A stretch of 64,000 nucleotides of DNA from an uncultured Gammaproteobacteria bacterium (GCA_964568885.1 CAZMSF010000001.1:5217-69216); one strand, 5' to 3'. Shown: positions 2,083 through 63,983, numbered from the stretch's first letter. Translations and numbers: made by a program. The notes: generated by a model from the sequence alone, not told the origin.

Positions 2083-2177
2083 TCTGCGAAGCAGACCAAG
2101 CTTTGCTTACCGTTAGACGAACCGACAATATTTTCTCGATAGGTCTAACGGCGAACTCATTAGACGAACCGACAATA
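2083..2177. repeat. Hairpin-rich region upstream of the tRNA: GTCTGCGAAGCAGAC hairpin, palindromic element CAAGCTTTGCTTAC, and two copies of TTAGACGAACCGACAATA that resemble the tRNA D-arm region
   Basis: Direct repeats at 2113-2130 and 2160-2177; inverted repeat CCGTTAGAC/GTCTAACGG; element core shared with five other loci. Confidence 0.5.
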
Positions 2178-4114: not shown

Positions 4115-4613
4115 GAAGAAAAATCGGCAGGTTTTTCTGTTTGTTGTTTTGTTTTTAATTCTTGCCCAAAACCAAGCCACAGCTGCAGAAACAACCTCGG
4201 TTAACATTTCAAATAATGGAAACGGCGCGAGCTCAAGCGTTGAAGTGCACAATAATATAAACTCCTATACTTCGACAAGCACAAATTCTACTTCCAAAAC
4301 TAACATCCGAATAGAGACAAATGGAAAAGTTAAGACATATGAATCGGAAAATGGCGGCAGTGTTCATCTGGAGTCTGACGATGGAACCGCAAAAGTCGAC
4401 ATCAACAATAATAATGTTAAAGGCACATCAACAACAAACGGTGTGACCCCGACAGTGACAACAGACTCAAATTCCGCTACTGTGGAGGCAGGGCGCAAAA
4501 TAGAGATTGCAAAGCAGAAAGCAAAAGAGATGAAAGAAAAGCAAAAAGGATTTTTCGCAAGACTGGAGCAGTATTTTAAGGAGTTGTTCTCAAAATTCCC
4601 TTTCAAATTTTAA
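4115..4613 (+). CDS. Secreted S/T/N-rich low-complexity hypothetical protein; probable GTG start with signal peptide
   Basis: VKKNRQVFLFVVLFLILAQNQATA signal-like N-terminus; ORF track extends upstream to 4002 without an RBS. Confidence 0.4.
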
Positions 4614-6175: not shown

Positions 6176-6212
6176 TCTTTTATTGTACCCGTATCGTGTT
6201 CCAAAGAAAAGT

Positions 6213-6500
6213 CTAGAGCGATCTTAAGATCTTCTCATCGCTTTTGACGGCCGGTTCTTTTATGTCGTTTGAGATCTGTTGCGACTGTTTCTCCACTTCC
6301 TTTCGCGTCTCTTTCAGCTCCTCTCCCGCCTTTGATAACACATCTGCCGCCTGCTTTTTAAATGTTCTTATTGAGTGAACTACCTTTCGCCTATTATTTC
6401 TGTCGGTAAGCGCCAGGGCTGCTGCCGTCAATCCTGCTCCTAAGAGAGCTCCCGCCAAACCAACTGTTGCAACAACATTTACTCTTTTTTCTTCCTGCAT
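6213..6500 (-). CDS. YtxH-domain (DUF948) general-stress-type protein
   Basis: Gly/Ala-rich TM segment followed by an amphipathic K/E-rich helix, typical YtxH. Confidence 0.55.
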   Translation of the reverse strand: MQEEKRVNVVATVGLAGALLGAGLTAAALALTDRNNRRKVVHSIRTFKKQAADVLSKAGEELKETRKEVEKQSQQISNDIKEPAVKSDEKILRSL

Positions 6501-8054: not shown

Positions 8055-9014
8055 ATGAGTCTTATAGATGATGTAAAAATTACCGTTAAAGCCGGTGACG
8101 GAGGGAATGGCGCATCTGCAAAAAAACAAGTTTTCGGAAGCAAAAAAACCGTTCCGGACGGCGGAAACGGCGGGAACGGAGGAAATATATATTTCAAAGG
8201 GTCAGCAAACGTCTCTGATTTATCCGAGTTTCAGTTCAAAAAAACCATAAAGGGAGAAAATGGTGTAAGCGGTCAGCACAAGGATTTGGACGGTGCAAAC
8301 GGGAATGATGTATATGTTTTGGTTCCTTTTGGTACTACAGTTAAAGACGAGGAAACGGGCGAATGGACCGAAATACTAACAGAGGAACCTTTCTGTGTTG
8401 CATATGGAGGTCACGGCGGAATGGGTAATCATGACTATCAGCCGGATTTAAAAAAAATGGTAGCAAGAAAAGCCGATGGAGAGCGGGGAGAGGAAAGAAA
8501 GCTTCACCTCGTTCTCAATCTTATTGCCGACGTCGGACTCGTAGGTCTTCCTAACGCCGGAAAAAGTTCGTTGCTGAAAAAGCTTACCAAAGCAACTCCT
8601 AAAGTTGGAAACTATCCGTTCACCACCTTGGAGCCAAATCTTGGCGCGCTTGACAATATAATTATTGCAGATATACCCGGGCTCATCGCAGGTGCTTCGG
8701 GGGGGAAAGGGCTGGGTCTGACTTTTCTCAAGCATATAAAAAAAACAAAAGTTCTGTTCCATTGTATCTCCTGTGAGGAGAAAGATGTGCTTAAAGCATA
8801 TGAGACAGTAAGAAAGGAATTTGAAGAGTTCGACAAAACACTTCTTACAAAAAAAGAAATAATTCTTCTTACTAAAAAAGACTTGGCTGACGAAAAAATT
8901 CGTCAAGAAAACAAAGAGCTATTTGAGAAAAAAGGATTGAGCGTTTTAGAGGTCTCGGTTTACGATGACAATAGCATAAAAGATCTTAAAGAAAAAATTA
9001 TTTCTTCCCTTTAA
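8055..9014 (+). CDS. obg: GTPase Obg (short form lacking C-terminal domain)
   Basis: Gly-rich Obg fold (GGNGGNGGN) followed by G1 GLPNAGKSSLL and YPFTTLEPNLG. Confidence 0.85.
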   Translation: MSLIDDVKITVKAGDGGNGASAKKQVFGSKKTVPDGGNGGNGGNIYFKGSANVSDLSEFQFKKTIKGENGVSGQHKDLDGANGNDVYVLVPFGTTVKDEETGEWTEILTEEPFCVAYGGHGGMGNHDYQPDLKKMVARKADGERGEERKLHLVLNLIADVGLVGLPNAGKSSLLKKLTKATPKVGNYPFTTLEPNLGALDNIIIADIPGLIAGASGGKGLGLTFLKHIKKTKVLFHCISCEEKDVLKAYETVRKEFEEFDKTLLTKKEIILLTKKDLADEKIRQENKELFEKKGLSVLEVSVYDDNSIKDLKEKIISSL

Positions 9015-14607: not shown

Positions 14608-14946
14608 ATGGAGCAATTATACTGCAAAGTATGCAAAGCCATTATTCTTCCTGCGTATAATTACTGTCCGAGCTGTGGAGTGAAACTAAAGGACACCGAA
14701 TTAACCATTACTCTTTCAAAACAGATTGGAGTGTATTTGTTAAGCTTTTTTCTCCCTCCTTTAGGGTTGTGGCCGGGATTCAAATATCTGAGAAAAGGGA
14801 ACGAGCATGCAAAACACGTCGGACTTATCGCAATTTTCTTAACAATTTTAGGAATAATTATCTCTTTATGGGCTTTCTTTGGTATTATTCACTCGGTCAA
14901 TAACACCCTCAATCAACAAATCAACTTAAAACAACTCGGTTATTAG
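14608..14946 (+). CDS. Zinc-ribbon membrane protein (hypothetical)
   Basis: CKVC...CPSC N-terminal ribbon followed by two TM helices. Confidence 0.4.
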   Translation: MEQLYCKVCKAIILPAYNYCPSCGVKLKDTELTITLSKQIGVYLLSFFLPPLGLWPGFKYLRKGNEHAKHVGLIAIFLTILGIIISLWAFFGIIHSVNNTLNQQINLKQLGY

Positions 14947-15202
14947 CAGCAATCAGTTCTTTCTTTTCTTCGCGTGTTAGTTGTTTTAACGAATATTCAC
15001 GTTTTAAGGCTCTAGATGCACCTTTCACTTTTTCAAAATACACAAGAAAAACCGGTCGTCTTGAACGGGTATATTTGGCTCCGCCGTTGATAAGTCCGTT
15101 ATGCGCACTTAACCGCATGGGTATGTTTTTTGTTTTACCGATGTAAAATGTATTGTCCGAGCATTCCAGAATATAGACGTAGAAATGCGAATCATTTACC
15201 AT
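14921..15202 (-). CDS. GIY-YIG nuclease family protein (UPF0213/YhbQ-like)
   Basis: FYVYILECSDNTFYIGKT...R...E...N motif set of the GIY-YIG domain. Confidence 0.75.
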   Translation of the reverse strand: MVNDSHFYVYILECSDNTFYIGKTKNIPMRLSAHNGLINGGAKYTRSRRPVFLVYFEKVKGASRALKREYSLKQLTREEKKELIAANNRVVLS

Positions 15203-44792: not shown

Positions 44793-46514
44793 ATGCTTCT
44801 TTTAATTATATTTGCTTTCATAGCGGGTTTTGTAACCGTACTCTCCCCCTGCATCCTGCCTGTTCTACCTATTGTTCTTTCGGGTTCTCTTCAAGGGGGT
44901 CACAGACGGCCAATAGGCATAGTAACGGGTTTTATAGTGAGCTTTTCTCTTTTTACTTTGTTTCTTACAGCTTTAGTTAAGGCGACGGGTATTCCGGCAG
45001 ATTTTTTAAGAACTCTTTCTGTAGTAATTATTGTTTTATTTGGATTCAGCTTGTTACTACCAAATTTTCAGGTTCTTATGGAAAAAATATTTACAAAGCT
45101 ATCAGGTCTTGTTTCAAGGAATTCAACACAAGCAACAGGATTTTGGAGCGGCCTTGTACTCGGAGTTAGCCTGGGGTTAGTGTGGACTCCCTGCGTTGGA
45201 CCAATTATTGCTTCGGTAATAACTTTGGCTGCAACAAGCTCAGTGAACGGAAGCTCAATTTTAATTACTTTTGCTTACAGTCTTGGTACCGCAATACCAA
45301 TGTTTGCCATCACTTACGGAGGGCGTACTCTTTTGCAAAAAGTGCCTTTCTTGCTTAAAAATACCACAAATATCCAAAAGGCATTTGGGATCCTCATGAT
45401 TTTAGTTGCTGTAGGTATTTTCTTTAATTTAGATAGAAAATTTCAAACCCTGGTGCTTGATAAATTTCCACTCTATGGAACCGGTCTAACTAAAATAGAA
45501 GACAATGACCTCGTCAAAAACTCTTTAAAAGCTTTAAATGCACCACAAGTCGACAAAAATATGATAGGCAAACCAATGCCTGATAATAACCAGTATCCGT
45601 CTGCTCCTGAAATAATAACAGGAGGCAAATGGTTTAATTCGCAACCCTTAACGGTCTCAAGCCTCAAGGGAAAGGTGGTTCTTGTCGATTTCTGGACGTA
45701 TACCTGCATAAATTGCATAAGAACTCTACCCTACATAAAAGCGTGGAATGAAAAATATAAAGACAAAGGGCTTGTCATAATTGGGGTTCACACACCCGAA
45801 TTTGAATTCGAAAAGAATGCAAACAACGTAGAGAAAGCTTTGAAAGACTTTAAGATAACTTACCCCGTTGTTCAGGATAATGATTATGCCACATGGAACT
45901 CATACGAAAATCAGTATTGGCCTGCAAAATATCTTATCGATAAGAACGGGAAGATACGGATGACCCATTTTGGCGAAGGAGAATACGATGCGACAGAGAA
46001 AAAAATTCAGGAATTACTGAAAGAAACAGGAGCAACGGTAAATGAAAAAGTCCAAAACAAAGAATACACCGTCGACACACTCTCTCCCGAAACCTATTTG
46101 GGGTATGACAGACTCGGTAATTTCGCCTCAAAAGAGCAGGCACAACTCGACACCGTCTTCACGTATTCTCTTCCCGACAAGCTTTCATTTAATGCTTTTG
46201 CTTACGAGGGGAAATGGAACATCGGACGTACGACTGCTATGCCTTTCTCAAATTCATTACTCGCGTATCATTTTAATGCTAAAGACGTCTACCTTGTCAT
46301 AAACAGCAAAAACGGTAATTCCAAGATAAAAGTGTTGTTAGATGGCATTATGCTACCGGAAAATCAGGCTGGAGATGACGTAAGCGGCGGAGAGGTGACC
46401 GTGAATGAAAACAGACTTTATCACTTACTCCATTTTCAGAAAGCGGAAGAGCACGTTTTGCAGCTTATTTTTCTCGACGACAATTCCATGGTGTTTGCTT
46501 TCACCTTTGGGTAA
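44793..46514 (+). CDS. DipZ-like fusion: CcdA/DsbD-type thiol-disulfide transporter domain plus thioredoxin-like (redoxin) domain plus C-terminal domain
   Basis: LSPCILPVLP CcdA motif, second Cys region (TPCVGP), redoxin WTYTCINC CxxC. Confidence 0.75.
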   Translation: MLLLIIFAFIAGFVTVLSPCILPVLPIVLSGSLQGGHRRPIGIVTGFIVSFSLFTLFLTALVKATGIPADFLRTLSVVIIVLFGFSLLLPNFQVLMEKIFTKLSGLVSRNSTQATGFWSGLVLGVSLGLVWTPCVGPIIASVITLAATSSVNGSSILITFAYSLGTAIPMFAITYGGRTLLQKVPFLLKNTTNIQKAFGILMILVAVGIFFNLDRKFQTLVLDKFPLYGTGLTKIEDNDLVKNSLKALNAPQVDKNMIGKPMPDNNQYPSAPEIITGGKWFNSQPLTVSSLKGKVVLVDFWTYTCINCIRTLPYIKAWNEKYKDKGLVIIGVHTPEFEFEKNANNVEKALKDFKITYPVVQDNDYATWNSYENQYWPAKYLIDKNGKIRMTHFGEGEYDATEKKIQELLKETGATVNEKVQNKEYTVDTLSPETYLGYDRLGNFASKEQAQLDTVFTYSLPDKLSFNAFAYEGKWNIGRTTAMPFSNSLLAYHFNAKDVYLVINSKNGNSKIKVLLDGIMLPENQAGDDVSGGEVTVNENRLYHLLHFQKAEEHVLQLIFLDDNSMVFAFTFG

Positions 46515-46563
46515 CAAAGGCAAGCTCTGCTTACCTTTGGGTAACAAAGGCAAGCTCAGCTTA
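46504..46563. repeat. 30-nt tandem direct repeat (2 units, 29/30 identical) spanning the stop codons of convergent dipZ-like and murF genes; contains the GCAAGCTCTGCTTAC element and CCTTTG/CAAAGG hairpin
   Basis: CCTTTGGGTAACAAAGGCAAGCTCTGCTTA at 46504-46533 and again at 46534-46563. Confidence 0.7.
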
Positions 46564-47932
46564 CAGAGAAGAAATCTTGCTTTGTCTTCATCCAATAATC
46601 TTCTTGCCGGGTCAGCTGCTTCGCATCCAGAGGATTTTCAAGCAAAAATTTGATTGCCTCCTCAAGATACAATGTATTTTGGGAGCCCTTCACAAGCACT
46701 ATCGCATTCTCGGGAAGCTCTTCCTTTATATGAAGCGCTGCTTGCACGGCATTCTTGTAGGCCTCAACCTTCCTTGTTTTCCCTTTCTTACCGACAAATT
46801 CCTTCACACGAGGGACAACGAATTCAGTCGTTAAAGGGCCTACACAGTACAGCTCGTCAACCACCCCAATCAATGCCCCTGCAACCTCCTCATGCTCGGC
46901 TTTAGACTCGTTCCCAAGCTCTCTCATGTCCCCCATTAGAAATACAGCAGGTCTTCCTGTTTTTTCCTTAAGATTTTTTAAAAGCTCAAGAAAGGAAAGC
47001 ACGGTGCTTTTTGAGGAGTTGTACGATGAATCGATGATAAGAGAATTCTTAATCCCGGCAAATAGTGACGAACGTCCTTTGGGAATAGTAAAATTTTTCT
47101 CCAGCGCTTCTTTTATTTGAGAGTAGGACAATCCAAGAGCGTGAGCAGCCAAGAGAACAGATGCAAAACTTTCCCGGGACGCAGGGGGCAGTAACACTCC
47201 GGGAAATGAAAGTTCAAGTGTCCTATTCATTTTTTGGCCCGGAATTATGTAAGTAAATTTTGTTTTCTTGGTTGTGACAGCATAATCTCCATAGTAAATT
47301 GAATTCCTCTTGTCCGTTCCGAACGTTTGAAGAATCAAAGACTCACTTCTGGCCTTTTTTTCAATTTTTTCGACCAACCGCAAATCATCTTTGTTATAAA
47401 TTCCCACTTTTGTGTATCCGTTGGTGATGATTTTGCTATCCTCCTCGGCAATTTTTCCTAATATGAACTCGAGAGAGTCTTTTGTGTGTTTTTTGAGAAG
47501 TTTTTCGAATTGAGCAGTATGTGTTGCTGTTGCATTTAAATCAATACTCATATCGGGCTTTACTATCGTCAGAAGATAGGACATGTTTTTGGGGGGATAC
47601 GGATCATCAATGCCCATTTCTACGATAAGATGAGTTATCCCCTTGAGGTGATGGAGTCTGAATGGCGCCCTTAATAGAGTTTTTAGCCAATTCCTTTTGT
47701 CAAACCCTGCAATATCAATGCCAAGAATGCCAAGAGGAACTCCAGTTTCAGAATTTCCACTTACCACTTCCGTCTTGAAAAAATCCTTCAACGCAGCCTG
47801 GAGTGCATTTCTGGTTGATGATTTGCCTACAGAACCTGCCACACCGATAACATATGGCCTATGAAGCATCAGAGCAAGCCTTGCCCAAAGCCGAAGATAT
47901 GATAATACCACTTTCACGAGAAAATCCCGCAT
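46556..47932 (-). CDS. murF: UDP-N-acetylmuramoyl-tripeptide--D-alanyl-D-alanine ligase
   Basis: Mur ligase P-loop IGVAGSVGKSST and C-terminal FLMGDMRELGNESKAEHEEV block. Confidence 0.7.
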   Translation of the reverse strand: MRDFLVKVVLSYLRLWARLALMLHRPYVIGVAGSVGKSSTRNALQAALKDFFKTEVVSGNSETGVPLGILGIDIAGFDKRNWLKTLLRAPFRLHHLKGITHLIVEMGIDDPYPPKNMSYLLTIVKPDMSIDLNATATHTAQFEKLLKKHTKDSLEFILGKIAEEDSKIITNGYTKVGIYNKDDLRLVEKIEKKARSESLILQTFGTDKRNSIYYGDYAVTTKKTKFTYIIPGQKMNRTLELSFPGVLLPPASRESFASVLLAAHALGLSYSQIKEALEKNFTIPKGRSSLFAGIKNSLIIDSSYNSSKSTVLSFLELLKNLKEKTGRPAVFLMGDMRELGNESKAEHEEVAGALIGVVDELYCVGPLTTEFVVPRVKEFVGKKGKTRKVEAYKNAVQAALHIKEELPENAIVLVKGSQNTLYLEEAIKFLLENPLDAKQLTRQEDYWMKTKQDFFSVS

Positions 47933-52645: not shown

Positions 52646-52676
52646 TTTTTAAGTGTAGCAGAAAACTGAAAACTAT

Positions 52677-52765
52677 TACCAGTCCTTGCGAGAAGCAGAG
52701 CTTGCAGGCTCGATTGCTACCAATCATTTTTGTAAGCAAAGCTTGCAAAAAACCCTTACCAGTCT
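52677..52765. repeat. Intergenic repeat block: two copies of the palindromic element (GAAGCAGAGCTTGC and GTAAGCAAAGCTTGC) flanked by TTACCAGTC direct repeats
   Basis: TTACCAGTC at 52677-52685 and 52757-52765; element copies at 52692-52705 and 52732-52746. Confidence 0.45.
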
Positions 52766-53955: not shown

Positions 53956-54014
53956 GAGTCTATTCTAACACTTCAAAACAACCCATTTGTTTTGTAAAAT
54001 AGACAAACATAAAG

Positions 54015-54069
54015 AAGTTAGGGCCCGTAGTTCACCGGTAAGCAAAGCTTGCCGCTGCACTCGGGTCAG
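54015..54069 (+). pseudogene. tRNA-Ala 5'-fragment copy (26 nt identical to the real gene start plus 6-nt flank) fused to palindromic element and a degenerate acceptor 3' strand
   Basis: AAGTTAGGGCCCGTAGTTCACCGGTA at 54015-54040 is identical to 54070-54095; followed by AGCAAAGCTTGCCG hairpin and CTCGGGTCAG. Confidence 0.6.
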
Positions 54070-54075
54070 AAGTTA

Positions 54076-54146
54076 GGGCCCGTAGTTCACCGGTAGAATG
54101 CATCCATGGCATGGATGAGAAAGGAGTTCGATTCTCCTCGGGTCCA
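54076..54146 (+). tRNA. tRNA-Ala: tRNA-Ala (anticodon GGC)
   Basis: Acceptor GGGCCCG/CGGGTCC with G3:U70, anticodon stem CATCC/GGATG with loop ATGGCAT, T-arm AGGAGTTCGATTCTCCT. Confidence 0.8.
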
Positions 54147-54148
54147 CA

Positions 54149-54275
54149 ACAAAGTGAAAAGGTGAGCTTGTTGCGAGCAACCGGCTGCGCCGGAACGAAT
54201 CCCCTAAGGTCCACACCAGGAAAGGCTGTTGTTTGCAGCAACTGACTGCGTCAGAACGATTCTCCTCGGGTCCAC
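54149..54275 (+). repeat. Two tandem degenerate units of about 60 nt, each ending in a copy of the tRNA-Ala 3' end (GGTCCACA)
   Basis: CGGAACGAATCCCCTAAGGTCCACA (54191-54215) and CAGAACGATTCTCCTCGGGTCCACA (54251-54275) versus tRNA end GGAGTTCGATTCTCCTCGGGTCCACA. Confidence 0.6.
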
Positions 54276-54295
54276 AGTACCCTTTTTGATACGTA

Positions 54296-54829
54296 TTGAC
54301 AACGCGGCCTTCCGGTGGCATAGTAAGGAAAATGGAAAACAACGAAACAACTCCCTCAAAGAAAGGCATGTCTCCCATGATGATTGGCGGAATCGTTATT
54401 CTTATTATTGTTGTTATCGGTGCAATTGTCTTTATGACAAAGGGAGGCTCTAAATCGACCTCTGAAACGACCAATACCCCCAGTTCTGCACCGACGCAAG
54501 CGACTCAACAGGCACCTGCCGAGGGAAGCGCAATGGAAGAAAAGAAAGAAGGAGCCGTAAAAACTTTCACCATTGAGGCATCTAGCTTTAAATTCTCACC
54601 AAATACAATGACAGTTAATGAGGGAGATATGGTAAAAATTACTTTCAAAAACACCCAAGGGTTTCATGACTTTGCTCTCGATGAATTCAACGTCAAATCA
54701 AAGACTATTTCTGCCGGTCAGACCGAGGAAATACAATTTGTTGCAAGCAAAAAGGGATCCTTTGAATTCTATTGCTCTGTTGGTAATCACAGAGCCATGG
54801 GGATGACCGGGACACTCACCGTTAACTAA
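54296..54829 (+). CDS. Membrane-anchored cupredoxin (type-1 blue copper protein, plastocyanin/azurin-like); true start probably an internal Met
   Basis: TM anchor, S/T-rich linker, cupredoxin fold with His (GFHDF), Cys-x4-His (YCSVGNH) and Met (AMGM) ligands. Confidence 0.7.
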   Translation: MTTRPSGGIVRKMENNETTPSKKGMSPMMIGGIVILIIVVIGAIVFMTKGGSKSTSETTNTPSSAPTQATQQAPAEGSAMEEKKEGAVKTFTIEASSFKFSPNTMTVNEGDMVKITFKNTQGFHDFALDEFNVKSKTISAGQTEEIQFVASKKGSFEFYCSVGNHRAMGMTGTLTVN

Positions 54830-54894
54830 TGATGACGGCAAGCTTTGCTTACCGCTAGTTGACCATGTGGCAAGCTTTGCTCACCGTTAACTAA
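54815..54894. repeat. 15-nt exact direct repeat CTCACCGTTAACTAA (first copy is the cupredoxin gene end) flanking two copies of GGCAAGCTTTGCT
   Basis: DR at 54815-54829 and 54880-54894; near-perfect hairpin CGGCAAGCTTTGCTTACCG at 54836-54854. Confidence 0.6.
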
Positions 54895-57377: not shown

Positions 57378-57732
57378 ATTTTAAGTCACCTCCTTTACGA
57401 GTAAGATAGTTCAATTTAAGAATTTTAAACTGAAATACGTTCAAATAGCAAAAATTTGAACTTAATTAGGTTCAAATTTAATGCTCTTGAGCGTACCTTA
57501 CTAATATGCACGTTCAAAGTCCGTTTGTCAAGTACTATTTGAACCTAATTTGGAATATTGATATATTGTGTACTATTCTGAGATACTGCCGGTTGTGCTT
57601 GTGTTTGAGTTTGGCGGAAGGTAAAATAGATGGACGAAAGTGAACTGCGTTCTCTCTTCGGGGTGTAAGCCTCGCTTTAATAATAATATAAATAAAGCTC
57701 GGCTTGGCTCCCCGAAAAATGTAGTACATTTT

Positions 57733-57807
57733 TCGGGGTGTAGCTCAGTTGGATTAGAGCGCGCGCTTTGGGAGCGTGAGGTCGGAGGTTCAAGTCCTCT
57801 CACCCCG
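57733..57807 (+). tRNA. tRNA-Pro: tRNA-Pro (anticodon TGG)
   Basis: Acceptor CGGGGTG/CACCCCG, D-arm GCTCAGTTGGATTAGAGC, anticodon loop TTTGGGA, T-arm GGAGGTTCAAGTCCTCT. Confidence 0.85.
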
Positions 57808-57884
57808 ACAAAATTCAGAATCTCCGACAGGTCGGATTGTGCAAGCACAGTTTCACTGCCAAGTCCTCTCACCCCGACAAAATT
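57791..57884 (+). repeat. 24-nt exact direct repeat of the tRNA-Pro 3' end (AAGTCCTCTCACCCCGACAAAATT) separated by a 46-nt two-hairpin spacer
   Basis: Copies at 57791-57814 and 57861-57884; spacer has CCGACAGGTCGG and TGTGCAAGCACA hairpins. Confidence 0.7.
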
Positions 57885-57920: not shown

Positions 57921-58418
57921 CTAGAATATTAATAAAAACTTTTTCTCTCCAACAGATAGGGGGTACCCCTCAAATTTAGGGTAGTCTGATCCATCAACAA
58001 CCCCCTGAACTTCAAGACCTAATGCAGCTGCCGAACGCACATACGAACTTACGCTCAAACCGAGGCTATTAGAAGCAGCTTCAACAGCATTATATTCTAC
58101 GAAAGGCAATAGTAAATTGAAGCGAGATCTAGGCTCAGGTTTTCCGAATTTTCCTAATAGACCGGTGGTATCTATAACTACATCGCCGGCTCTTAAAGTG
58201 GTGTCCTTACCGTCTCTGGCCTCCTCTGCCGTCTGTTTATCAACCATTTCTTTCATTTTTAAATATGAACGTAAAAGTGAAATTGTAGTTGAAGAATTTT
58301 GCTGCGCTTTTCCATTCAAGGCATCCAACATTTGAGGACTAAAAACAATATTTACTCTTTTAACATATTGTTCTGCAGCTTGAATATGCCCTTCAGAGTC
58401 ATGTCTCATAGTATGCAT
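57921..58418 (-). CDS. Hypothetical protein with two ribbon-helix-helix-like segments
   Basis: VNIVFSPQMLDALNGKA and GLSVSSYVRSAAALG resemble RHH/CopG-type motifs; weak. Confidence 0.3.
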   Translation of the reverse strand: MHTMRHDSEGHIQAAEQYVKRVNIVFSPQMLDALNGKAQQNSSTTISLLRSYLKMKEMVDKQTAEEARDGKDTTLRAGDVVIDTTGLLGKFGKPEPRSRFNLLLPFVEYNAVEAASNSLGLSVSSYVRSAAALGLEVQGVVDGSDYPKFEGYPLSVGEKKFLLIF

Positions 58419-63721: not shown

Positions 63722-63796
63722 GGGTGGAAGACGGGTGCCGCCCCCGCGACCTCAGGTTCCACAAACCTGCGCTCTACTGTTGAGCTACATCCACCG
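63722..63796 (-). tRNA. tRNA-His?: tRNA-His-like (anticodon GTG, G-1:C73) with atypical D-loop (no GG) and T-loop (GGCGGCA)
   Basis: Extra 5' G pairing with C73, acceptor GTGGATG/CTTCCAC (one mismatch), anticodon stem CAGGT/ACCTG with loop TTGTGGA, encoded CCA-like end. Confidence 0.45.
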
Positions 63797-63867
63797 AAAA
63801 ATGAAATTTTTTGGTGGCATGCAAGACAAATTTTAATTTGGCTTACATCCACCTAATCAATTTCTTG

Positions 63868-63940: not shown

Positions 63941-63953
63941 AACTCTTTTGAAT

Positions 63954-63983
63954 GCCCTTGCAAGCTTTTGCTTACGAGGGCAT
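63954..63983. repeat. Palindromic element copy (GCCCTTGCAAGCTTTTGCTTACGAGGGC) upstream of tRNA-Arg whose 3' arm duplicates the tRNA 5' end (TACGAGGGCA)
   Basis: TACGAGGGCA at 63974-63983 equals 63932-63941 (tRNA 5' end, plus-strand reading). Confidence 0.45.

Follow-up and report, generated by a model that had tools for sequence, protein, structure and literature searches.

Integrative elements that use tRNA genes as targets carry an integrase, and the integration sublocations within those genes, as set out by Williams in 2002, are said to match repeats that start in the T loop or the anticodon loop. In organelle genomes, pseudo-tRNAs produced by tandem duplication and random loss decay beside the working gene; in phage T4, the GIY-YIG enzyme SegB represents a free-standing homing-endonuclease cassette in the tRNA region. 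As to small hairpin repeats, cyanobacterial SDRs were reportedly described by Elhai in 2008, and the double-hairpin elements (DHEs) of Allomyces belong among the mitochondrial hairpin repeats. Here we describe a tRNA-Pro gene whose 3' end is exactly repeated a short distance downstream, in a 64,000-nucleotide (nt) stretch of bacterial DNA (the window; positions are counted from its first letter). The original prediction, made on this sequence, had seen in this layout the attL-cargo-attR structure of a tRNA-targeting integrative element; our results point instead to partial copies of tRNA genes interrupted by hairpins, which recur at many tRNA genes of related genomes.

Fragments of tRNA genes derived from integration span about 9-23 kb in the documented cases, and about 121 kb in one (PMC9897764). 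Like those fragments (Reiter 1989; Williams 2002; reviewed in PMC9897764), the units described here include a direct repeat of the 3' part of the gene, running from the T loop or anticodon loop past the 3' end, with the gene left intact and tandem accretion possible. Unlike them, they are spaced by 15-270 nt, lack an integrase in the window, are accompanied by equally frequent 5' fragments, and have tRNA segments in the 'cargo' and no paired T-stem arm. With small hairpin repeats (cyanobacterial SDRs, cited in PMC3116915; repetitive extragenic palindromes, REPs, PMC3733652; mitochondrial hairpin elements, PMC2800124), they share non-coding units of 15-50 nt, a conserved core, structure-preserving variation, and a position at gene ends, where they sometimes provide the stop codon. 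In contrast to such repeats, every unit here lies between 9-40-nt copies of the end of the adjacent gene, and the T-arm family is confined to tRNA pseudo-copies; the text of the REP paper contains neither the word 'duplication' nor 'target site' (PMC3733652).

The resemblance to organelle pseudo-tRNAs lies in the decaying tandem tRNA copies adjoining a working gene, but here the decay is non-random, family-specific hairpins occupy defined loop positions, and the remaining segments are 100% identical to the gene. As in homing-endonuclease cassettes, GIY-YIG open reading frames (ORFs) adjoin tRNA genes in some relatives, and one such ORF lies between a 5' fragment of tRNA-Arg and the intact gene (L004; L-numbers such as L001, L007 and L205 label the related loci compared with the window); unlike in such cassettes, no endonuclease ORF is present within 57657-57884, nor at the tRNA-Pro, tRNA-Ala, tRNA-Arg and tRNA-His loci of the window.

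The tRNA-Pro gene and its flanking units

tRNA genes were called with ARAGORN and Rfam (RF00005), and other RNA families with the Rfam 15 covariance models; fold z-scores were calculated against shuffled sequence, as RNA or as DNA. The tRNA-Pro locus comprises the following features.

57657-57667, plus strand: 5' fragment of tRNA-Pro (TT and nt 1-9, TTCGGGGTGTA) in the ancestral leader context; exact 11-nt direct repeat of 57732-57742
57668-57731, plus strand: insert of 64 nt separating the 5' fragment from the gene; DNA fold z = -8.07; missing in L205
57710-57738, plus strand: perfect 14-1-14 palindrome, CCCCGAAAAATGTA-G-TACATTTTTCGGGG, spanning the new leader and tRNA nt 1-5
57734-57808/9, plus strand: functional tRNA-Pro(TGG) (ARAGORN; Rfam RF00005, 64.2 bits); CCA not encoded
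57791-57815, plus strand: proximal repeat copy, tRNA nt 56-73 and 7-nt trailer (exact repeat)
57816-57828, plus strand: continuation of the native trailer, then CTCCGAC; homologue of the trailer in alleles L205 and L203 (window, L208, L203 and L205 compared)
57829-57836, plus strand: AGGTCGGA, in-register copy of tRNA nt 44-51 (57779-57786 in the gene; also in L007), start of the recognisable pseudo-copy
57837-57859, plus strand: 23-nt module (TTGT, GCAAGC palindrome, CAG-TTTCA-CTG hairpin) in place of tRNA nt 52-55 (GGTT); also found, with this design and at this tRNA position, twice each in L007 tRNA-Pro and window tRNA-Ala
57860-57884, plus strand: distal repeat copy, pseudo-copy nt 56-73 and 7-nt trailer (exact repeat)

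The 24-mer AAGTCCTCTCACCCCGACAAAATT occurs exactly twice (57792-57815 and 57861-57884), with no third copy at up to three mismatches. Since it had no match in 100 shuffles, a chance origin of the repeat is ruled out. Identity extends by one base on the 5' side to the 25-mer CAAGTCCTCTCACCCCGACAAAATT, the two copies of which are 69 nt apart from start to start and enclose a spacer of 44 nt (57816-57859). The duplication of the tRNA-Pro 3' end is thus confirmed and covers tRNA nt 56-73 and 7 trailer nt, in agreement with the original prediction; the coordinates given there for the first copy, however, were off by one, and the spacer is 44 rather than 46 nt long. An assembly artefact is likewise ruled out, because the interval from tRNA-Pro to the DUF378 gene is identical in 10 loci (L201, L202, L204, L206, L207 and L209-L213, with L202 and L211 being one contig) from separate ENA and Logan samples; variant versions of the interval occur in L208 and L203. 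The specific pattern of the Pro spacer had no match in viral and JGI metagenome contigs, and a scan of viral contigs with a 15-mer returned only chance matches.

The two hairpins that had been proposed for the spacer are both present as palindromes (CCGACAGGTCGG, 57824-57835; TGTGCAAGCACA, 57838-57849), and a third (CAGTTTCACTG, 57848-57858) overlaps the second. However, the spacer together with the distal copy folds no better than shuffled sequence (z = 0.03 as RNA, z = -0.25 as DNA), so that the 'two-hairpin' label refers to sequence symmetry alone. In the Rfam 15 search the tRNA itself was the sole scoring match, all others having E > 0.1 and lying far below the gathering scores.

The downstream unit reads, all in gene order, nt 44-51, the 23-nt module, nt 56-73 and the trailer, the module standing in for the T stem's 5' strand and the T loop's first two bases. 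Because tRNA nt 44-51 lie in register within the spacer, we interpret the downstream unit as a partial tandem pseudo-copy of the gene. Colinear, adjacent segments in the same orientation, as expected for a tandem pseudo-tRNA, are found here and also at L001 tRNA-Arg, L005 tRNA-Ala and L004 tRNA-Pro. With moderate confidence, which extends jointly to the mechanism proposed below, we take the distal 25-mer to be the putative intact 3' end of a partial tandem tRNA-Pro pseudo-copy that would lie 12 nt 3' of the functional gene.

By the same token, the attL-cargo-attR reading was not borne out: between the repeats there is native trailer and tRNA nt 44-51 and not foreign cargo. A direct repeat of the 3' portion is present, as attachment sites demand (nt 56-73 and 7 nt, with starts clustering at nt 54-58), but the inverted-repeat core is not: in place of nt 52-55 there are 23 nt of unrelated sequence, which part the remaining stem bases from the loop, leaving the distal copy without the T-stem 5' strand beside the T loop that a tyrosine-recombinase core site needs. 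Moreover, 5' fragments, which integration at a 3' end does not produce, lie upstream of the same tRNAs, and duplicated stop-codon ends of protein genes are likewise associated with this hairpin core. A recombinase was looked for with Pfam among the 66 window ORFs of at least 90 aa, and no integrase, transposase, reverse transcriptase or Cas protein was found.

It is very unlikely, in our judgement, that the repeats are integration scars, i.e. attL and attR of tyrosine-recombinase islands whose cargo has been nearly all deleted, or traces of trans-mobilised miniature (CIME-like) elements. Such scars would account for the way in which repeats start in the T loop or anticodon loop (nt 36 in L005 tRNA-Ala) and run past the 3' end, and tRNA-gene fragments left by integration are documented (PMC9897764); the region 3' of tRNA-Pro is also variable, with an ORF present or absent (see below) and, in L203, at least 2 kb of unrelated genes. 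They would not account for the lack of an integrase in the scanned window ORFs and of any kb-scale island bounded by tRNA-end repeats in the related loci compared, for the missing T-stem 5' arm and the nt 44-51 in the spacer, or for 5' fragments that are equally common and 'cargo' of only 15 nt.

Further known arrangements were considered and rejected. For a simple tandem duplication or minisatellite, the window has only 1.36 units (25 + 44 + 25 nt), with no spacer repeated after the distal copy; in a CRISPR-like array the spacers would be diverse, and here they are one conserved sequence; an archaeal-type tRNA intron does not agree with inserts that replace bases, nor with pseudo-copies devoid of a 5' acceptor strand.

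The 5' fragment of tRNA-Pro sits 75 nt upstream of the gene. The insert that follows it is composed of long imperfect hairpin arms (57667-57679 and 57693-57705) and then of CTCCCCGAAAAAT (57708-57720), which resembles a 3' acceptor strand and trailer. Judging from this composition, fragment and insert (57657-57731) are readable as a second, 'hollowed' pseudo-tRNA-Pro, made of a 5' acceptor strand, a long hairpin and a 3' acceptor-like strand. In L205 a homologous leader directly adjoins the intact tRNA-Pro; in the window this ancestral leader adjoins the upstream fragment, and the working gene therefore lies to the right of a 75-nt insertion. The palindrome over the tRNA start has an equivalent in L224 (about 1292-1330), built on a different, co-varying leader (CCCCGAAATCGTA-A-TACGATTTCGGGG); co-varying arms in both loci would imply either arm-to-arm homogenisation or selection on the hairpin.

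The window is ordinary chromosome, with genes for Fur, ZIP, MgsA, glucose-6-phosphate dehydrogenase (G6PD), 6PGD and an HD hydrolase near tRNA-Pro. From comparison with its relatives, it is assigned to a Patescibacteria (Levybacteria-like) genome. The closest G6PD loci (63-74% identity) are Patescibacteria metagenome-assembled genomes labelled Candidatus Levyibacteriota or mislabelled Gammaproteobacteria, and share with the window the gene order tRNA-Ala, tRNA-Pro, tRNA-Gly, G6PD; one DUF378 homologue carries the NCBI name Levybacteria. Relatives found via DUF378 homologues mostly lack synteny with tRNA-Pro, and an exact-protein search with the G6PD ORF gave no match, probably owing to the start codon chosen. 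The sole mobile-type gene revealed by the Pfam scan of the window is a GIY-YIG ORF (14921-15202, minus strand), and no RAYT gene occurs in the 64-kb window. A 165-aa ORF at 57921-58418 (minus strand), inserted about 66 nt 3' of the distal repeat, shows by eye two ribbon-helix-helix (RHH)-like halves and a weak NikA-like Pfam match (E = 0.0015). As an indel, this RHH/NikA-like ORF occurs in most strains but is missing in L208 and L205. Upstream of tRNA-Pro and adjoining fur, a conserved intergenic block (ACCTTACTAATATGCACGTTCAAA...TTTGTCAAGTACTATTTGAAC, 57470-57545), also found in L002, L005, L056 and L007, may be an operator or promoter region.

Recurrence at tRNA genes, in relatives and at protein-gene ends

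Exact repeats of at least 12 nt that include a tRNA terminus and lie at most 300 nt away were surveyed in the window, 80 Patescibacteria loci and the strain loci (1.3 Mb, 108 distinct tRNA contexts), with random 75-nt segments as the control. They occurred in 23 of the 108 contexts (21%) as against 27 of 5000 random segments (0.5%), i.e. in 15/59 contexts of Levybacteria-like loci and 8/49 of other Patescibacteria; the viral loci contained 7 tRNAs, too few for a control outside Patescibacteria. In the window, partial copies flank five of seven tRNAs (Ala, Pro, Arg, His and, as an upstream fragment, Gln). These figures substantiate the suggestion that tRNA termini are recurrent sites of duplication and insertion; moreover, the second copy of the tRNA-Pro end lies outside any conserved gene, promoter or terminator. 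The 3' copies start at canonical nt 56 in 11 cases out of 24, and within nt 54-58 in 16; the 5' copies end at nt 9-10 in 11 cases out of 22, and at nt 20-21 in four. Breakpoints thus cluster at nt 9/10, 20/21 and 55/56.

Breakpoints in cloverleaf loops (nt 9/10, 17-21, 35 and 55-58) would also agree with error-prone break repair or template switching at tRNA genes, the hairpins being templated filler. The breaks may come from transcription-replication conflict, from a nicked cloverleaf of the non-template strand, or from tRNA-adjacent GIY-YIG endonucleases. This explanation, which we hold to be unlikely, could accommodate the direct-inverted-direct arrangements and perfect palindromes, as well as the GIY-YIG ORFs beside tRNAs in L004/L003 and L001, with a tRNA-Arg 5' fragment upstream of the ORF in L004. 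However, the same hairpin, with the same T.G pair, recurs at unrelated sites in different genomes, unlike random filler, and the GIY-YIG gene of the window is 40 kb distant and without flanking repeats.

The other units of the window are listed below, those at protein-gene ends included.

54013-54067, plus strand: upstream pseudo-tRNA-Ala, composed of an 8-nt leader with nt 1-20, the GGTAAGCAAAGCTTGCC hairpin (54037-54053) and acceptor-3'-like CTCGGGTC; exact 28-nt repeat of 54068-54095; DNA fold z = -2.71
54149-54276, plus strand: two downstream pseudo-3' units of tRNA-Ala, each TTGT, hairpin 1, hairpin 2, AA and nt 56-end (repeat identity)
63943-63983, minus strand: upstream pseudo-tRNA-Arg, TGCCCTCGTA + AGCAAAAGCTTG + CAAGGGCA; 12-bp minihelix-like hairpin, inverted and direct repeats
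63796-63856, minus strand: upstream 5' fragment of the tRNA-His-like gene (GGTGGATGTA, 63844-63853) and hairpin insert (repeat search)
2096-2177, minus strand: tRNA-5'-like fragment (TATTGTCGGTTCGTCTAA) present twice upstream of tRNA-Gln, with GGTAAGCAAAGCTTGG at the end of the second copy (repeat search)
46503-46564, unstranded: last codons and stop of a DsbD-like gene (CTTTGGGTAACAAAG) twice, each followed by GCAAGCTCWGCTTAC (same hairpin core)
54815-54894, unstranded: two hairpin-core copies between two copies of the cupredoxin gene end with stop (CTCACCGTTAACTAA) (repeat and core match)
52676-52764: MgsA gene end, with the hairpin core between duplicated last codons and stop (same hairpin core)

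Downstream of tRNA-Ala, the 3' parts at 54196-54215 and 54257-54276 are 80% and 100% identical to the gene, respectively. As to whether the right arms of the 5' units derive from the real 3' acceptor strand or from the complement of the 5' strand, the signs are mixed: the arm of the upstream tRNA-Ala unit has the U70 T, but the tRNA-Gly units of L224 clearly carry the reverse complement of the D-arm region. In strains linked through MgsA the gene spacing is identical to that of the window, so that this comparison, of spacing and not of bases, offers no empty site for tRNA-Ala. The 5' fragments at tRNA-Arg, at the tRNA-His-like gene and upstream of tRNA-Gln end in GTA and continue into a common AGC...GCTTG hairpin. 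The tRNA-His(GTG)-like gene itself (63723-63794, minus strand; Rfam 48.8 bits) is not called by ARAGORN and has the T loop GGCGGCA, as against TTCGAAY in relatives; it may be a pseudogene or an unusual tRNA.

The hairpins belong to families with preferred positions. The core GGTAAGC-N3-GCTTGCC, always with a T.G pair, is found in the window, L001, L006 and L224/L226, with variants in L235 and L228, and is placed after nt 9 or nt 20/21; the shorter GTAAGC-N3-GCTTGC gives 9 near-matches in the window vs 2.1 expected, and 11 strict matches in the window and loci. The TTGT two-hairpin family is placed just before nt 56: the design TTGT, hairpin 1, hairpin 2, AA, C56 occurs at window tRNA-Pro, window tRNA-Ala (twice) and L007 tRNA-Pro. 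Its stem changes are compensatory (CAG/CTG vs CTG/CAG; CCGGC/GCCGG vs CTGAC/GTCAG), and a module variant ending in TTCGTCAG before CGAGTCC is found at L001 tRNA-Arg and L007 tRNA-Lys. A MITE, a transposable element of the miniature inverted-repeat type, was rejected, as the spacer has no terminal inverted repeats, the repeat lengths vary (9-40 nt) and BLAST over 1.2 Mb found no dispersed spacer copies.

A 15-17-nt hairpin also sits between the duplicated stop-codon ends of the three protein genes listed above (DsbD-like, cupredoxin and MgsA), the minimal case being a 15-nt hairpin between 15-nt repeats at 46503-46564. Almost all exact local repeats of at least 15 nt in the window fall at these tRNA-flank and gene-end loci. 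The stop codon of a convergent Mur-ligase ORF falls in the loop of one protein-gene-end hairpin. A cyanobacterial HIP1/SDR context was discarded, with no GCGATCGC in the window and an organism belonging to Patescibacteria.

Comparison with relatives makes the pseudo-copy reading unambiguous, the most explicit case being L001 tRNA-Arg. There, 12 nt past the gene, the exact blocks nt 7-17, nt 20-49 and nt 56-end with 10 further nt follow in order, parted by hairpin inserts of 26 nt in the D loop and 27 nt in the T arm. In L005 tRNA-Ala, where the repeat starts in the anticodon loop (nt 36), an exact 3' part of 40 nt comes after a D arm that has decayed; the spacer of L004 tRNA-Pro consists, in its 3' half, of a decayed copy of about nt 37-55. 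The sequence before the modules of L007 tRNA-Lys and window tRNA-Ala resembles each tRNA's own variable region. In general, the sequence 5' of the modules resembles the tRNA to which they belong (Pro, Ala, Arg and Lys), and a simple target-site duplication cannot put such tRNA-specific sequence there.

This bears on another explanation, rather unlikely in our view, according to which a tiny element (the 44-46-nt spacer) inserts at the T loop via nicks about 25 nt apart, the long target-site duplication keeping the gene intact. With A for the copied gene segment, X for the spacer or module and rc(A) for inverted A, the layout is always n x (A+X) + A and never a plain two-copy tandem, as such an insertion would produce; the sharp nt 55/56 breakpoint, the common module design of Pro and Ala, the match of every repeat, trailer included, to the local gene, and the minimal hairpin case at 46503-46564 would fit as well. 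On the other hand, tRNA-specific sequence lies 5' of the module (up to 30 + 11 exact nt in L001 tRNA-Arg), repeat lengths range over 9-40 nt, there are no terminal inverted repeats, no dispersed copies and no transposase in the window, and L205 is not a clean empty site, as it carries a different pseudo-copy remnant.

The history of the Pro unit can be followed in more distant relatives and in strains. In L007 (63% G6PD identity) a homologous Pro spacer is present twice in tandem, with AGGTCGGA preceding the module there too. It shares with the window blocks identical at 13/13 and 7/7 positions (CAGGTCGGATTGT and GTTTCAC), the CAG/CTG stem being swapped to CTG/CAG, and each spacer is followed by L007's own tRNA 3' end (CGAGTCCTCTATCCCCGAC), unlike the window's at three positions. 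In both loci the distal copy thus shares the acceptor-stem substitutions of the local tRNA. Homologous spacers with repeats that track the local gene call for concerted evolution, by conversion or unequal exchange, or for repeated regeneration of the unit; overall, the Pro locus points to probable concerted evolution. The unit is missing in the intermediate relatives L002, L005 and L056. Among strains, L208 retains it, with 4 spacer substitutions and the 19-nt repeat unchanged; L203 has at least 2 kb of unrelated genes and then a decayed copy, trailer, spacer and an intact copy; L205, with an identical tRNA-Pro, lacks the upstream insert, the spacer and the distal copy, and has instead a 32-nt remnant starting with D-arm-like GTAGCTTAGTTG.

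Arrays of the form n x (A+X) + A, always closing with an extra copy of A, were found in L007, L058 and L008. The tRNA-Gly flanks of L224, L226, L229, L230 and L235 contain arrays of up to three upstream units (5' fragment, core, inverted 5' fragment) and several downstream copies of the acceptor 3' strand, which form minihelix-like hairpins. The upstream units in general are hollowed copies in which a 5' strand and a hairpin core precede a strand complementary to that 5' strand. In these tRNA-Gly arrays the right arm clearly corresponds to the 5' fragment in reverse complement, and the resulting order A, core, rc(A), A hints at possible fold-back synthesis.

Some relatives showed peculiarities of their own. 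GIY-YIG ORFs adjoin tRNA genes in L004 (15845-16075; also in L003) and L001 (8542-8718); the L004/L003 ORF runs on into tRNA-Arg and has a 5' fragment of tRNA-Arg ahead of it, and a decayed copy lies upstream of tRNA-His. In L047, a 4.2-kb segmental duplication includes tRNA-Ala and tRNA-Pro(CGG) (4515-4586 and 8744-8815), with a separate 20-nt repeat of the 3' end downstream of each Pro copy. In other Patescibacteria, spacers of 130-170 nt separate tRNA-Ala from its 3'-end copy (L046, about 6185-6351; L058, 161-453; L066, about 1994-2130), with the common design of an inverted tRNA-end copy, a stem interrupted by CUGA...GAAG internal loops, and a hairpin whose loop is UGUAA. Those of L046 and L058 fold far better than shuffles (z about -5), and the L058 spacer matches no Rfam family. 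A hammerhead or other known ribozyme was rejected for these larger spacers, as the core motifs do not fit and no Rfam match was obtained.

Mechanism and meaning

The copies are colinear with their genes, recur at many tRNAs, have clustered breakpoints, are polymorphic among strains and contain modules that are homologous across genomes. The mechanism that we favour, which in our estimation has an even chance of being right, combines partial tandem duplication, loop-specific colonisation by hairpins, and homogenisation. In this scheme, short partial tandem duplications of tRNA genes and of other gene ends would arise often in these genomes. Small non-coding hairpin modules would then enter the copies at positions corresponding to cloverleaf loops; they would survive only in the redundant copy, an equal insertion in the working gene being presumably lethal. 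Finally, unequal exchange or gene conversion between gene and pseudo-copy would keep the flanks identical and expand or contract the arrays. The resulting structure is most likely without host function.

Several points weigh against this scheme. No donor, autonomous element or enzyme was found, and the mobility of the modules is deduced solely from their recurrence at equivalent positions; BLAST over 1.2 Mb of sequence revealed no copies of the T-arm modules away from tRNAs. The scheme explains neither the origin of the initial duplications nor the inverted copy of the target held by many 5' units, whose A, core, rc(A), A pattern points to fold-back or template-switch synthesis. In the Pro spacer, moreover, the 8-nt in-register match is by itself weakly significant, the stronger cases coming from relatives, and a selected function could be the reason why the spacer is conserved from the window to L007 and its stem changes are compensatory.

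On this last possibility, the units would be co-transcribed mimics of the acceptor-stem minihelix or of tRNA ends, or else leader/trailer processing structures, under selection. Apart from the conserved L007 spacer, it would explain why the perfect palindromes over the tRNA start co-vary between the window and L224, why the Arg and His pseudo-copies form 12-bp hairpins equivalent to acceptor (7 bp) plus T stem (5 bp), and why the larger spacers of other Patescibacteria fold so well. We nevertheless regard it as highly improbable: their presence varies even between close strains (L205), they are missing in L002, L005 and L056, the Pro spacer has no significant fold, no Rfam match was found, and conversion alone can keep palindrome arms identical.

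It is also conceivable, although doubtful, that an undescribed duplicative process of Patescibacteria acts on cloverleaf-folded single-stranded DNA or on pre-tRNA, breaking and joining at nt 9/10, 20/21 and 55/56 and installing family-specific hairpin modules; its products would be minihelix genes and 3'-end mimics beside about one-fifth of tRNAs. Such units could be a new class of ultra-small mobile element targeting tRNA structure, or expressed mimics of the tRNA top half processed by RNase P, RNase Z and the CCA-adding enzyme.

In the literature searched we found no published description of flanking tRNA copies interrupted by hairpins, and none joining the Candidate Phyla Radiation, Saccharibacteria or Microgenomates with tRNA fragments or pseudogenes. 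Fragments of tRNA genes and pseudo-tRNAs are already known; what is new here is their short range, their loop-position specificity, the hairpin modules and the radiation-wide prevalence.

Fragments of tRNA genes are usually read as footprints of kb-scale islands; in these genomes of about 1 Mb, they lie within a range of 15-270 nt beside some 20% of the sampled tRNAs. Annotation of tRNAs, island finders based on repeated tRNA ends, and the assembly of these genomes from short reads can all be misled by the units. A dedicated mechanism, if there is one, would rank with the smallest known systems of mobility or duplication, and would recognise nucleic-acid structure; if none exists, the units would be a natural record of break and repair at tRNA genes in streamlined genomes.

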